A DNA stretch of 64,000 nucleotides from Escherichia coli (GCF_003991155.1 NZ_CP031293.1), one strand, 5' to 3'. Numbered from the stretch's first letter, positions 42,001 to 48,000 are shown. A program made the numbers.

Positions 42001-45000
42001 TTCAGGGATATATTGCAGATATGTTCCACTCACTACAGCTTTCATTCCTGGTTTCTATGCTCTGCTTTGTCTATGTCGGAGTCTACTTCTGGCGTGAAAG
42101 CAAAGTACGTACCGCACTGGCTGAAGTCACAGCGTCCTGAGGAGAACCGTTATGAGTACGCGTATTAATTTGTGGCGGGCGCTTTTTGGCGAGAAACCTC
42201 GTATCTTGCTGGAAAATAGTGATTTTACTGTCACGTCTTTTCGATATGACAGCGGTGTCGAGGGGCTTAAAATTGCAAACAGTCGTGGACATTTGATTAT
42301 TCTTCCCTGGATGGGGCAGATGATTTGGGATGCGCAATTTGATGGACACGGCCTCACCATGTGCAATATGTTTCGCCAGCCTAAACCGGCGACAGAGGTG
42401 ATAGAGACCTATGGCTGTTTTGCTTTTCATTCAGGTTTGCTGGCTAATGGCTGCCCATCTGCGGAAGATACTCATCTGCTACACGGTGAAATGGCCTGTG
42501 CCGCGATGGATGAAGCATGGCTGGAATTAGACGGAGATATGTTACGCCTTAACGGGCGTTACGAGTATGTAATGGGTTTCGGTCATCATTATCTGGCTCA
42601 GCCAACAGTGGTCCTTCACAAATCCTCTACACTGTTCGATATTAAGATGGCCGTAACCAATCTGGCTTCTGTAGATATGCCACTACAATATATGTGCCAC
42701 ATGAATTATGCATATATACCAAATGCTACATTCAGCCAGAATATCCCGGACGAAATATTAAGATTGCGTGAATCAGTGCCTTCGCATGTTAATCCCACCG
42801 CTCAGTGGCTGGCGTTTAATCAACGGATTATGCAGGGAGAAGCCTCTCTGTCGACGCTGAGTCAACCGGAATTTTATGATCCAGAAATTGTCTTCTTTGC
42901 AGACAAACTGGACGCTTATACAGATCAGCCAGAGTTTCGCATGATCTCTCCCGATGGCACCACGTTTGTTACTCGTTTCTACAGTGCTGAACTAAATTAT
43001 GTGACACGCTGGATCCTTTATAACGGAGAGCAACAGGTAGCCGCCTTTGCATTACCTGCAACCTGTCGGCCTGAGGGGTATCTTGCCGCGCAACGTAATG
43101 GCACGCTGATTCAGGTTGCACCGCAGCAAACGCGCACTTTTACAGTCACCACAGGAATTGAATAACCACTCAAGGCCTGAACAGCGGCGCGCTTATCGTT
43201 AAGGTAAGCGCGTTTTTTACCCGCCAGGACAAGACTATGATAGCGTTGCCCTTATAGACGATCACATTATCGTCCACTCCAAATTTGCGCAACTACTGTA
43301 GAGTGGTGTACTCCACAGCTTCTTTGAGGAGCTTAACCTCCATTGTTTTCTTACCGAGCAAGCACTGCAACTCTTTTATTTATTTGTAGTGGTCAACAAA
43401 AACTGGTCACAATTTCAGTTTTTTTCCAGTATCTATTTTCCGATTCGTTCGGCGGTAATCCACCGTTATATTCATGAGGCCGGAGTGCACTATAAAAGTG
43501 TATGCGTAAACCGACTGCTGTATGTAGCCATTAAGCCAGTATTGGTAACATAGGTACCCACCTTTTCAACTAGTGGACACCTGTTATGGAACAAAAAACA
43601 TTATCAGCTGAACCCCGCAGGTTATTTTCAAATGAGTTTAAACTTCAAATGGTTAAACTGGCTTTACAACCAAGGGGTTCTGTTGCCCGTATTGCCCGGG
43701 AGCATGATATCAATGATAATCTTCTGTTCAAATGGCTCAGGCTCTCGCTGATCAAAGGGCGTATATCACGGCGTCTTCCGGTAACGAACTCTTCTGGCAT
43801 TGGCGTTGAATTATTACCTGTGGAGATGACGCTGGATGAGCGGCCTTACCCCGTTTTTTACGCGAGGTAATTATGAAGATCAATGACTAGCCGTCGAACC
43901 GCGTGCATGAACTGCTGCACTGAAACTTCTCAGCTGTAAAATAATCCTTACGCTACGTACTTCTCGGAGCGCTTACGATTAATCGGATGCAGTCCTGACT
44001 GGAAGAAAGAAAAATGGAGAAAATAAGAGGAATTAATATCCTCCACGTTCCTGAAATCCTGGAGGATATTAATGTCATCAAAATATTAGCGAACGATAAT
44101 CCCTAACAAAATACCCAGTGCGCCAAAGTCAGCATCACTGAAGGTGGTGTTAGCAAAACCAATATCACCCAGCACCGGCAATAAGAATACTGGCAGGAAG
44201 GTAATAAGCAAGCCCTGAGCGAAGGCACCCAAAATCGCACCACGACGTCCACCCGTTGCATTACCGAATACCCCTGCAGCTGCACCTACGAAGAAGTGCG
44301 GCACCACACCAGGAATAATCACGATCATGTTCAGCAGATACAACGTGAACATACCGATTAAACCTGCAGCAAAGCTACTCAGGAAACCAACCAGTACAGC
44401 GTTAGGTGCGTAAGGGAAGACGACCGGGCAATCGAGAGCAGGTCTGGCATTCGGAACCAGCTTGTCTGAAATACCTTTGAATGCCGGGACAATCTCCGCA
44501 ATCACCATGCGCACACCCTGCAGAATGATGTACACGCCAGCTGCGAAGGTAATGGATTGCATGATAGAGAACATGAACCAGTTTTTACCACCGCTAAGCT
44601 CTTTCACCGCATCTGCACCCGCAAACAGGCACGTCACCAGGAAAATTATGCTCATGGTAAAAGAGATAGCAACCGGCGTGTCGCGCAAGAACAGCAGACT
44701 TTTCGGCACATTCATGTCTTCAGTCGAGTGCTCTTTATTACCAAACTTGCTGCCGATGAAACCGGCCAATACATAAGATAATGTTGAGAAGTGGCCGATG
44801 GCAACGTCATCAGAACCGGTCACTTTCTTCATGTACGGATGCGCAATAGCCGGGAAAAAGACCATTGCCACGCCAACAACCAAAGAGCCAACGGCTATAA
44901 GCGTAACGCCGGTCATGCCTGCTGTTGCCAGAATTACCGCTACCATCATCGACATAAACAACGTGTGATGACCGGTCAGGAAGATAAATTTCCACGGTGT

Positions 45001-48000
45001 GAAACGGGCAATCATAATGTTGATAACCATCGCAAAGAACATAATCATCGCCATTTCTTTCCCGAAGCTTTTCTGCGCTACGGAAACAATGGCTTCATTG
45101 TTCGGCACGACACCCTGAATACCAAAGGCATGCTGGAAAATGTTTGCGAAGTCACCCAGTGACGACACAACTAAACCCGCCCCTGCGCCTAAAATCACAA
45201 ACCCCATAATGGTCTTGACGGTACCTTTAATGCATTCGGTTACCGGTTTTTTCTGTGCAATCAGGCCAATCAGGGCGATTAAACCGACCAGCACCGCGGG
45301 TTCGGAAAGTACATCGCTCATCAAAAAACGAAAGAAATCCATATCGCCCCCAGCTTACAGTGCGCCTAATTCGGTTAATGCCACGGACAAACGTTCTCTC
45401 ATGGCTTTCTTATCAATCATATTTTCCAGGGCGACGATTTTGCCTGCGACAGACTGCGCGACTAACTGCTCGGCAATATCTTTGGTGCCGACATAGATAT
45501 CACTCGGCGTCCCTTTCGCGGAGCCCAGGTCGACATGATCAACATCAGCGCTGATGGACAAATCCTTCAAAATGCTTTTAATGCTCATTTCCATCATCAG
45601 GCTGGTGCCTAAGCCGTTACCGCAAACCACTGTAATTTTCATAAATGTTCCTCAGAATTAATAGCGCGCAATAACAGACAAAATGTCCTGCGTCGTTTTG
45701 GCCGTCAAAATAGCCTGTATGTCTTTTTCGTTATCGAATAACTTGGCGAGTTGAGAAATCGCTTCAATGTGGCTGGTACTGTCGGTTGCAGCCAGCACAA
45801 TCAGTAATTTCACTGGATCGTTTTCATCGGCATCAAAATTCACACCTGAAGGGATCAGGGTCAGTGCTAATGACAGCTTGTTAGCCCCCTCTTCCGGGCG
45901 CGCATGAGGCATCGCAATACCAGGGCCAACCACATAGTACGGACCGATAGTGTCGTGCGAGTGATAGATCGCATCAACATAACGCGGTTCGATAGAACCG
46001 TTTTCAATCAACGGTCGGCATGAAATCGCCACGGCTTCCCGCCAGTCTTTGACCTGTTCCACGACCTGAACGACCTCTGTATTTAATAGATTTTTTAACA
46101 TACGACTGATAACTCCCGATGATAATTAACAGGAGAGTAGATATTTTACGCATTAATTAATGTGATGATTGTCGCATTTGATAGCGCTATCTGATAACGC
46201 TACCAATCTTTGTGATAGCGCTATCATTTCTCTGCCGCCATGCTTTGGCTATATTCGGTTCCTGCATATACAATGCAACAGGATATTTGCTACCGTGGGC
46301 AAAAACTGGAAAGAGTAATGGTGAAATAAAAGTAATGAAAACAGCTGGTTGTAATTATCCATGGAGTCGAAATGGAAAAAACACGTAAGCGCCGTGGTAC
46401 CGGACGGGTGACGCTGCAGGAGGTCGCTAACTTTGCAGGTGTCGGAACCATGACCGTTTCCCGCGCGCTGAGAACACCGGAACAGGTTTCTGACAAGCTG
46501 AGGGAAAAGATAGAACAGGCCGTAGAAGAGTTGGGTTATATTCCCAACAGAACTGCTGGCGCCCTTGCATCTGGTCACAGTCATACAGTCGCCGTACTGG
46601 TTCCTTCCCTGACAGATAAAGCCAGCTCCCGCTTTATGCAGTCATTACAGCAGGTGCTTAATAAAAATGAATTCCAGCTACTGCTTGGGTGTCATGAGTA
46701 TAATCAGCTCAAAGAAGCTGAAATTCTGATGACGCTTCTTCAAGGCAACCCGGCGGCGTTAGTTATTTTTGGTTCTCAGTTGGCTGATAAAACTCACCAG
46801 ATACTCGAGAAAACAAATATACCTACCATTAACGTTATCGGTTCCCCTTTCAGTCCGGCTCAAATTACCATCGAAACAGCATTTTTTGAAGCATCACATA
46901 AACTGACCGAACATCTGCTGGAGCAGGGTTATAAGAATATCGGATTTATCGGTGCGCATATGGACAACCGCCTGCAACGTCAGCAACTGAACGGCTGGCA
47001 TAAAGCAATGCTGAGCCATTACCAGAACACTGATCTTGTTATCACCATGCCGGATGCCGCAAGTCTGCAATTGGGGCGTTACGCATTAAACGAGATATTA
47101 CTGCGACAACCAGAGCTGGATGCTGTGATTTGCAGCCACGAAGAGATTGCGCTGGGTATAATGTTTGAGTGCCAGCGGCGTTTGTTAAAAATCCCTGGAA
47201 ATATCGCTGTAGCTTGTCTTGACGGTTCAGACAATTGCGATCAAACACACCCAACTTTGACATCCATCCGTATTGACTACAAAAAAATGGGGATAGAGAC
47301 AGGTAAGTTACTGATTGGACTATTGAATAATAATCATGATGAATCAGAAGAGTCGCGTATCGTGCAATTCAACTACCAGATAGAATTACGTCAGAGTACA
47401 TGAGCCTAAAAGAGCGCTATTACAAAGTTAGCTATTGTGGTAGGGATAGCCGTTTCCGGCTATTCCCCGCGCAGTTCCGGATGTATGCTGCTAACGCATC
47501 CATTCCTACTTCAGGTATTTGGCGTAGAAGCGGATGCTAAAAACTTGTCGCAAAACCGCAATATCAGCCTGCAGTATCGCTCTCCAGATTATCCATTCCT
47601 ATATTGATGACAACGACAGGTAAGACTGTGACTCACCAAACTTGGATGTTTTTCTGAGCTTAAAGCTCGTTGCGTGAATAAGGCGAGAGTCAGCGAATCT
47701 CATTGAGGCCCGCAGCACCGGCTGCAATAAGGATATAGAGCAGCAATCTACCGTCAACGTCAAAAACACGGAAGCCTTGCAAACGGGATGCGTTCATATA
47801 AACAACATGGAGCAGCAACAGTACGATGCCTGTTGTTGCTCAGTCAGGACCTTTTCTGCCATGCGCGAGCCAGCGTCACGATTGATAAATAATGTTCGCA
47901 ACTGATTACTTTACTGCAACAGACGTGGCTGGTAATAAGCGCTGGCGGACAATGCAGGGTGAAAGGCTGTTTTCGGGTTGTCCGGCCTGATACATCAGAG

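Follow-up and report, generated by a model that had tools for sequence, protein, structure and literature searches.

An enzyme-less ascorbate-family phosphotransferase cassette, probably the vpe locus, on an Escherichia coli pathogenicity island

Results

Gene content and functional state of the locus

We analysed a 64,000-nucleotide stretch of Escherichia coli DNA (GCF_003991155.1, NZ_CP031293.1; hereafter the window), concentrating on the region from 43586 to 47403. A first-pass annotation made from the sequence alone had placed five open reading frames (ORFs) here; all five are present at exactly those coordinates and supported by Pfam far beyond chance, and many E. coli chromosomes with identical DNA have these five genes annotated in RefSeq. 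Four of them encode the components of a phosphotransferase system (PTS) and a LacI-family regulator, and the region very probably corresponds to vpe, a locus described earlier in extraintestinal pathogenic E. coli, and comprises a complete enzyme II complex and its own repressor. The vpe locus is recognised by PTS enzyme II genes that lie on a pathogenicity island and adjoin a deoK operon, and this is the arrangement found here. The gene names used below (vpeA, vpeB, vpeC and vpeR) are those that we take to have been assigned in the original description of 2012. That the module had already been named and studied as vpe had escaped the first-pass annotation.

The permease gene vpeC (44086–45342, minus strand) encodes a 418-residue enzyme IIC of the ascorbate (EIIC-GAT) family, which matches the Pfam profile PF03611 (PTS L-ascorbate family, TC 4.A.7) over its full length (profile positions 1–394 of 394, E = 3.5e-150) and scores 629 bits against NCBIfam NF006919, for which the cut-off is 380. 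The adjacent vpeB gene (45355–45642, minus strand) encodes a 95-residue enzyme IIB (Pfam PTS_IIB, PF02302, E = 1.6e-12) with an N-terminal cysteine, Cys7, in the sequence MKITVVCGNGLGTS, and vpeA (45658–46101, minus strand) encodes a 147-residue enzyme IIA of the mannitol/fructose/ascorbate type (Pfam PTS_EIIA_2, PF00359, E = 1.8e-36) with a phosphorylatable histidine, His66, in the motif GIAMPHAR. Divergent from vpeABC, the vpeR gene (46372–47403, plus strand) encodes a 343-residue LacI-family repressor composed of a LacI helix-turn-helix (HTH) domain (PF00356, E = 2.8e-19) and a Peripla_BP_3 domain (PF13377, E = 6.7e-25).

These genes were compared with their orthologues in Brenneria, Dryocola, Klebsiella sp., Vibrio parahaemolyticus, Photorhabdus and Proteus. 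Across the six genera amino-acid identity is 88–97% for the IIC protein, 57–88% for IIA and 48–87% for the regulator. Synonymous sites are at or near saturation over these distances, and ratios of nonsynonymous to synonymous substitution rates (dN/dS) are therefore given only where dS is unsaturated; they amount to 0.012–0.024 for IIC and, where estimable, to 0.03–0.10 for the other genes. Both phosphorylation residues, Cys7 of IIB (within MKITVVCGNGLG) and His66 of IIA (within GIAMPHAR), are invariant in seven genera. The intact reading frames, low dN/dS values and invariant residues indicate that all four vpe genes are under strong purifying selection and are working genes, not pseudogenes. 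A terminator-like hairpin followed by a U-rich tract lies 12 nucleotides 3' of the vpeC stop codon (44032–44073, minus strand). It consists of a 14-bp perfect inverted repeat with a predicted RNA folding energy of −21.3 kcal/mol (z = −3.5 relative to shuffled sequences), was also recovered by a terminator scan, and is consistent with the operon ending at this point.

Cassette boundaries and distribution

The first-pass annotation had regarded the PTS genes and their divergent regulator as a self-contained module, and DNA homology bears this out with precise limits. Similarity to the six genera extends from the vpeR stop codon (47403) to the vpeC stop codon (44082–44086), and in 80 species it never runs past the cassette ends. 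These species are the best 80 of 133 that were positive in a scan of one genome per species, and the results that follow refer to them. They belong to 20 genera, among which are Buttiauxella, Yersinia, Providencia, Proteus, Edwardsiella, Photorhabdus, Xenorhabdus, Vibrio, Photobacterium, Grimontia, Aeromonas, Brenneria and Ca. Fukatsuia. Many of the bacteria among which this four-gene cassette travels live in the gut or the sea. VpeC is 83–99% identical to its orthologues in this set, and the layout of a regulator gene divergent from vpeA-vpeB-vpeC is preserved in 72 of the 80 species.

The neighbourhoods of the cassette differ from genus to genus. In Brenneria it lies between pta and a NUDIX gene, in Dryocola it adjoins phoU-pstB, and in Klebsiella sp. 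it has a fimbrial operon on one side and a beta-glucoside operon on the other; Vibrio, Photorhabdus and Proteus carry it in yet other surroundings. When the flanking ORFs of all 80 species were clustered, no conserved flanking enzyme gene was found and no outside family recurred in more than four of the 20 genera. The recurring families (ackA, pta, DUF412, the NUDIX gene, phoU and pstB) are of the housekeeping kind and correspond to two favoured chromosomal sites, and a gnt, edd or gnd gene was never linked to the cassette in these flanks. Since the cassette occurs without enzyme genes at unrelated sites across 20 genera, the lack of accompanying catabolic genes, which the first-pass annotation had pointed out for the window, is the rule and no effect of the IS junction described below. 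A recent donor of the E. coli cassette was not found, because even in Buttiauxella, the closest lineage, with 98–99% amino-acid identity in IIC, nucleotide identity is merely 84–88%.

Some loci depart from the common layout. In Yersinia pestis NCTC5923 (locus L039, 5653–8257) the gene for a 402-residue IS256-type transposase lies directly upstream of an intact vpeC, in place of vpeR, vpeA and most of vpeB; this genome thus has a disrupted cassette, whereas the other 13 Yersinia species examined have a complete one. Seven loci carry vpeABC without an adjoining VpeR-like gene. They come from Xenorhabdus spp., Ca. Fukatsuia symbiotica and Serratia microhaemolytica, and one of them belongs to a reduced aphid-symbiont genome.

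The insertion sequence remnant downstream of vpeC

The fifth ORF of the region belongs to a composite remnant of insertion sequences (IS) of the IS66 family that separates the deoK and vpe segments. Its first part (43500–43841, plus strand) is IS682-like and shares 89.5% identity with an intact IS682 copy in E. coli 2013C-3342 over the left end and the initial ~256 bp of tnpA. Within it begins the 94-codon ORF (43586–43870, plus strand), which encodes the HTH-containing N-terminus of the IS66-family accessory protein TnpA (Pfam HTH_Tnp_1, E = 6.9e-13); the first ~85 codons are derived from tnpA and the remainder is unrelated, out-of-context sequence. The second part (43875–43977, plus strand) is ISSfl3-like and matches the ISSfl3 copy of plasmid pINV at 90% identity, over the final 16 bp of tnpC and 87 bp of right-end sequence. 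An IS66-family element would comprise tnpA, tnpB, tnpC, terminal inverted repeats and a target duplication. Here two ends are all that is present, no matching pair of inverted repeats spans the remnant and no 8-bp target duplication was seen on reading the flanking sequence; the remnant is unable to transpose.

The ORF had been described as an orphan IS OrfA fragment. A truncated HTH transposase fragment it is, but its family has to be corrected: an IS3-type OrfA was rejected because NCBIfam models of IS66 TnpA score higher (64 and 58 bits, both under their cut-offs) than the IS3 model (22 bits) and because the DNA matches the ends of IS682 and ISSfl3. The proposal that the fragment marks a mosaic junction has held up, given the composite make-up of the remnant and its position without target duplication between the deoK and vpe segments. 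The order deoK–remnant–vpe is kept in E. coli even where IS2 or ISEc23 has later inserted into the spacer, from which we take the remnant to be an old trace of the joining of deoK and vpe.

The position of the remnant, 110–590 bp downstream of vpeC, could also be taken to mean that the module is the decaying remainder of a larger operon that was cut by an IS insertion at this point. Losses do occur elsewhere, as in the replacement of vpeR, vpeA and vpeB in Y. pestis, and in ~310 further E. coli genomes the vpeC match is 5'-truncated. One of these loci was inspected, that of strain U13A, which in addition to the truncation has no vpeA, vpeB or vpeR and carries instead a transposase fragment, an MFS (major facilitator superfamily) transporter gene and genes of the PdxA, UxaA and DapA families. 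Together these truncations suggest that the vpe locus is decaying in part of the species. For the window, however, a truncated operon or pseudogene was rejected on the basis of the cassette boundaries, the dN/dS values and the terminator: in the 20 genera, where this IS is absent, the cassette ends at the same nucleotide past vpeC with no enzyme genes downstream, a terminator-like hairpin follows the gene, and the frames are intact with dN/dS of at most 0.10 wherever it can be estimated. We therefore give decay of a larger operon next to no credence. The flanks and cassette boundaries likewise speak against membership of any larger known operon, as do the intact frames and phosphorylation residues against PTS pseudogenes, the two findings that the first-pass annotation had named as fatal to its reading.

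Operators and the regulator VpeR

Three palindromes of the LacI type, which are predicted operators, stand in tandem in the 270 bp that separate vpeA from vpeR: operator 1 at 46179–46192 (TGATAGCGCTATCT), operator 2 at 46192–46205 (TGATAACGCTACCA) and operator 3 at 46213–46226 (TGATAGCGCTATCA). All three fit the general LacI-family pattern TG..A.CG.T..CA. The window yields three matches to the motif, all in the spacer, where 0.19 would be expected by chance. No further sites were found elsewhere in the window or in the flanks of any fetched locus, so that the motif is confined to the cassette. In an alignment of seven genera, from E. coli to Vibrio, the operator trio is the sole conserved block of the spacer, and the Vibrio spacer is 90% identical over the 51 bp of the operators as against ~75% for coding DNA. 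VpeR and its sites thus show the features of a LacI/GalR repressor, namely an HTH, a periplasmic-binding-protein-like effector domain and operators that are palindromic around a central CG.

For one orthologue of VpeR, that of V. parahaemolyticus (locus L008, 5915–6943), the structure of the ligand-binding domain has already been solved. It is PDB entry 3D8U, deposited as a PurR transcriptional regulator, which aligns with this orthologue at 602 bits and over the aligned residues is identical to it except for the first one or two positions and one internal substitution. The second-best PDB match of VpeR is a GntR (3H5O), and the best NCBIfam matches are the gluconate repressor GntR of Pseudomonas aeruginosa (279 bits), the idonate repressor IdnR (207 bits) and GntR of E. 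coli (175 bits). Gluconate and 6-phosphogluconate are the effectors of Pseudomonas GntR, and its operators, as defined by footprinting, have the core TAGCGCT or AGCGCT; the VpeR operators share the core TAGCGCT.

This likeness invites the view that Vpe is a gluconate-type sugar-acid PTS which delivers 6-phosphogluconate, VpeR sensing gluconate or 6-phosphogluconate in the manner of Pseudomonas GntR. The regulator matches, the 3H5O structure and the identity of the operator core, TAGCGCT(A), with the footprinted sites all fit such a system. So does the enzyme-less cassette, given that 6-phosphogluconate requires no dedicated enzyme, and a characterised member of this PTS family carries an acidic sugar lactone. 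Every regulator match, however, lies under its equivalog cut-off, and the DNA motif does not fix the effector: a transketolase-linked paralogue (see below) has the same operator and a much diverged effector domain. The complete absence of gnt, edd and gnd from the flanks also counts against gluconate, as does the fact that E. coli has four gluconate permeases. To our knowledge, there is no gluconate PTS in this family. As an account of Vpe as a whole, we consider a dedicated gluconate system unlikely.

Comparison of VpeC with the ascorbate-binding site of UlaA

VpeC can be aligned with the ascorbate permease UlaA (PDB 4RP8) over 390 residues (E = 2e-50, 175 bits), in which 11 residues have been reported to contact vitamin C. 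Ten of these fall within the alignment, Met410 lying beyond it. Four are kept in VpeC (His135, His194, Asp314 and Phe362 in UlaA numbering), Ile358 is conservatively changed to Val, and five of the ten are replaced (T86N, Y87E, I136H, Q139F and Q195F). The set of ascorbate-contacting residues is thus not conserved, and the five replacements argue against L-ascorbate itself as the substrate. In addition, no ulaG- or ulaDEF-type genes and no DeoR-type UlaR flank the cassette in the window or in the 80 species, and the linkage that characterises UlaABC is lacking.

A second transporter for L-ascorbate (or isoascorbate or dehydroascorbate) nevertheless has to be weighed, because the enzymes of the core ula regulon (ulaG, ulaDEF) could break down its product, ascorbate-6-phosphate, and the enzyme-less cassette would thereby be explained. 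The IIC protein belongs to the ascorbate family and exceeds the cut-off of the NCBIfam model 'PTS ascorbate transporter subunit IIC'. His135, His194, Asp314, Phe362, Gly58, Gly286 and Arg288 of UlaA are conserved, ascorbate-6-phosphate is the effector that RegPrecise predicts for its SgaR group, and urine contains ascorbate. Set against this are the replacement of half of the alignable contacts, including the polar residues Thr86, Tyr87, Gln139 and Gln195, and the low overall similarity of the IIC protein to UlaA. The regulator is of the LacI type and resembles GntR and IdnR, whereas UlaR is of the DeoR type; the closest paralogous loci have transketolase or transaldolase/FSA genes instead of genes of the ulaG/D/E/F type; and the RegPrecise effector was predicted from gene names. 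We accordingly regard an ascorbate transporter as doubtful, and the substrate is probably not L-ascorbate.

Paralogues and the class of the substrate

The Vpe orthologues appear to form a tight group, since an exhaustive search of the representatives of 50%-identity clusters revealed none that is full-length and more than ~55% identical to VpeC, as compared with at least 83% for the orthologues of the species scan. The nearest representatives (50–53% identity) are found in three contexts: SIS–IIB–IIC–transketolase–SIS, PRD regulator–IIB–IIC–transaldolase/FSA (TAL_FSA), and IIA–IIB–IIC alone.

A closer paralogue is present in E. coli AR_0085 (locus L095, NZ_CP029741.1, 5859–11114), where a LacI-family gene is divergent from genes for IIA, IIB, a 462-residue IIC and the N- and C-terminal subunits of a transketolase. 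Paralogues of this type, with ~67% nucleotide identity, are the best vpeC match in 97 complete E. coli genomes. The AR_0085 IIC is 63% identical to VpeC, with nearly the same residues in the predicted binding site, its regulator is 43% identical to VpeR overall and ~85% in the DNA-binding domain, and its spacer contains the same TGATAGCGCTATCA operators. It lies on another island, beside inovirus Gp2-like and YadA-like genes. From the order of its genes we presume that it corresponds to Salmonella STM2340–STM2345. STM2345 is the example of the SgaR group in RegPrecise and appears in the Salmonella literature as PagR, an activator of SPI-2 genes; beyond this mention of PagR, nothing was found in the literature on STM2340–2345.

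Around Vpe, the enzymes to which the branch is linked time and again belong to the non-oxidative pentose-phosphate pathway. The movement of the cassette without any enzyme gene, taken with the transketolase, transaldolase/FSA or SIS-isomerase genes that are the only ones beside its nearest paralogues, suggests that the phosphorylated product may be an intermediate of central metabolism or lie one core-enzyme step away from it, probably in the pentose-phosphate pathway; on comparative evidence of this kind we put the idea forward as a tentative one that falls somewhat short of an even chance. The leading candidates would be a gluconate-like sugar acid, yielding 6-phosphogluconate, or a sugar yielding a ketose phosphate that transketolase accepts. 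In its more general form, which we hold with no more assurance, the idea is that Vpe-type cassettes make up a sub-branch within the ascorbate-family PTS, one that yields a pentose-phosphate-pathway intermediate as its phosphorylated product. Examples may be gluconate giving 6-phosphogluconate, or free xylulose, ribulose or sedoheptulose giving a transketolase substrate.

Several points weigh against these assignments. The link to the pentose-phosphate pathway would be one of guilt by association with paralogues that are 50–63% identical, and the wider branch is not uniform, as a VpeC relative at 49% identity lies beside polyol dehydrogenases. In the closest paralogous regulator the effector domain is far more diverged than the DNA-binding domain. 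VpeR does not reach the GntR or IdnR equivalog cut-offs (400 for P. aeruginosa GntR, 500 for IdnR and 433 for E. coli GntR). RegPrecise, for its LacI-family group SgaR in Enterobacterales, Vibrionales, Aeromonadales and Pasteurellales, predicts ascorbate-6-phosphate as the effector; by taxonomic distribution and regulon size this group is evidently the same kind of cassette, and the effector is a prediction from gene names. None of the proposed substrates explains the published capsule phenotype. The identification with the vpe locus of strain AL511, for its part, is based on gene content, context and secondary sources.

Genomic context and published descriptions of vpe

The 64-kb window is an E. 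coli pathogenicity island. By megablast, many E. coli chromosomes of human origin match the segment 43400–47600 at 100% identity, and 935 of 5,426 complete E. coli genomes carry at least 80% of it. A full-length vpeC occurs in 1,034 E. coli genomes, and vpe is present in ~19% of the complete genomes. RefSeq gives the gene order in one identical genome as a DeoR-family regulator, a ribokinase-like kinase, a FucP-like permease, an aldose-1-epimerase-like protein and a transposase fragment, followed by PTS IIC, IIB and IIA, the LacI regulator, an ECs1377-family protein, cdiB and cdiA.

On the vpeC side, 38791–43165 contains a gene for a DeoR-family regulator (minus strand) and genes for a PfkB/ribokinase-like kinase, a FucP-like MFS permease and a DUF4432/aldose-1-epimerase-like protein (plus strand). 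This set matches the deoQKPX (deoK) operon for deoxyribose utilisation, which the literature places beside vpe. GC content falls to 36–43% over 39500–41500 in this region. On the vpeR side, ~700 bp (47437–48121) without a convincing gene precede the gene for the ECs1377-family protein (48122–48781), which is followed by cdiB (49003–50775) and cdiA (50788–60654), the latter encoding 3,288 residues and annotated by RefSeq as a contact-dependent inhibition tRNA-nuclease effector. From ~49000 onwards GC content rises to 56–60%, which marks another module of the island. In strain WP3-S18-ESBL-07 an IS110-family fragment starts ~130 bp past vpeR, and the right border of the vpe segment is thus also a variable junction.

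Functional coupling of vpe to the neighbouring deoK operon was rejected, since deoK has its own permease and regulator and no VpeR operators; for the same reason it does not supply the catabolic genes that the first-pass annotation had failed to find. In the other genera examined the cassette never lies beside deoK-type genes.

The genome paper of E. coli NCTC 86 places the vpe locus and the deoK operon on the same region of difference and, citing Martinez-Jehanne et al., 2012, attributes less group-2 capsule to mutants of the uropathogenic strain AL511. A paper on islands of Shiga toxin-producing E. coli describes vpe (4 ORFs) beside deoK (4 ORFs) and a cdiA homologue, and states that both operons promote gut colonisation. 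A preprint of 2020 still calls the substrate of the Vpe permease an unknown carbohydrate, in keeping with the first-pass annotation, which had left the substrate unclear.

Phenotypes of this sort prompt the question of whether the Vpe proteins are mainly a regulatory phosphorelay (a sensory PTS) that controls capsule or virulence genes, as opposed to a system for nutrient uptake. In the abstract of the original study the mutants are reportedly affected in capsule-like material, serum resistance and virulence, all of which are reduced, and the abstract is said to give no growth defect on a defined sugar. Eight years later, in 2020, the substrate was still unidentified, and the activation of SPI-2 genes reported for STM2345 as PagR points in the same direction. 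A phosphorelay would sit poorly, however, with an IIC that is the most conserved of the four proteins (83–99% identity, dN/dS ~0.02), as fits transport under strong constraint. It would also sit poorly with a dedicated, substrate-type LacI repressor and three operators, the hallmark of an inducible catabolic transporter, and with paralogues that are joined in operons with metabolic enzymes. We judge it highly unlikely that regulation is the main role of Vpe.

Discussion

The locus is ordinary, was correctly read and has been described before, and the comparative results leave its classification unchanged. They do allow a model to be proposed in which phosphoryl groups would pass from phosphoenolpyruvate through enzyme I and HPr to His66 of VpeA and from there to Cys7 of VpeB. 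In the elevator-type permease VpeC the phosphoryl group would then be transferred to the substrate, and the phosphate ester would be released into the cytoplasm. From the operators and the family of the regulator we infer that VpeR, when no inducer is present, would occupy the three tandem operators (TGATAGCGCTATCA) of the divergent promoter region and repress vpeABC, and probably vpeR as well, until repression is lifted by the substrate or its phosphate ester. The IS66-family remnant was probably left behind by the recombination that brought the vpe cassette and the deoK operon together within the island.

That vpe contributes to fitness and virulence in extraintestinal pathogenic E. coli is established. 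If its phosphorylated product does enter the pentose-phosphate pathway, a four-gene cassette of transporter and repressor would amount to a complete and horizontally portable catabolic trait, and the compound, once named, would reveal which nutrient from the host underlies the published effects of vpe on urovirulence, capsule and gut colonisation. The search is narrowed by the absence of a linked enzyme, the transketolase and transaldolase paralogues, the likeness of VpeR to gluconate repressors and the replacement of half of the alignable ascorbate contacts. What results is a small set of candidate substrates and effectors that can be put to the test, and the 3D8U structure is available for ligand screening.

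Comparison with known systems

The closest counterpart of the locus is vpe of strain AL511 (Martinez-Jehanne et al., 2012), which in secondary descriptions is likewise an ascorbate-family PTS enzyme II on a pathogenicity island, beside deoK and near cdiA; compared in this way, by gene content and context, the two have no known difference.

The transketolase-linked cassette of AR_0085 shares with vpe the layout of a LacI-family gene divergent from IIA-IIB-IIC, the operators and the DNA-binding domain of the regulator. It differs in its 462-residue IIC, in the two transketolase-subunit genes downstream and in the strongly diverged effector domain.

UlaABC (SgaTBA) of E. coli K-12 (UlaA structures 4RP8/4RP9 and 5ZOV) also consists of separate IIC, IIB and IIA proteins from the same Pfam families, and with His135, His194, Asp314, Phe362, Gly58, Gly286 and Arg288 conserved, VpeC presumably uses the same elevator mechanism. 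UlaA is longer (465 residues as against 418) and only distantly similar (175 bits). The ula genes are arranged as ulaABCDEF with ulaG and a DeoR-type UlaR, whereas vpe has the order A-B-C with a divergent LacI-type repressor and, unlike the ula system, has no lactonase, decarboxylase or epimerase genes.

GntR of P. aeruginosa and P. plecoglossicida resembles VpeR as its best NCBIfam match, in the operator core and in repressing a transporter gene together with itself; it controls a gluconate permease and kinase and no PTS, and VpeR scores 279 against a cut-off of 400. The remnant downstream of vpeC, finally, keeps an IS682-like left end together with the 5' part of tnpA, and an ISSfl3-like right end. 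It differs from IS682 and ISSfl3 in lacking tnpB, tnpC and most of tnpA, and in having ends that derive from two different members of the IS66 family.

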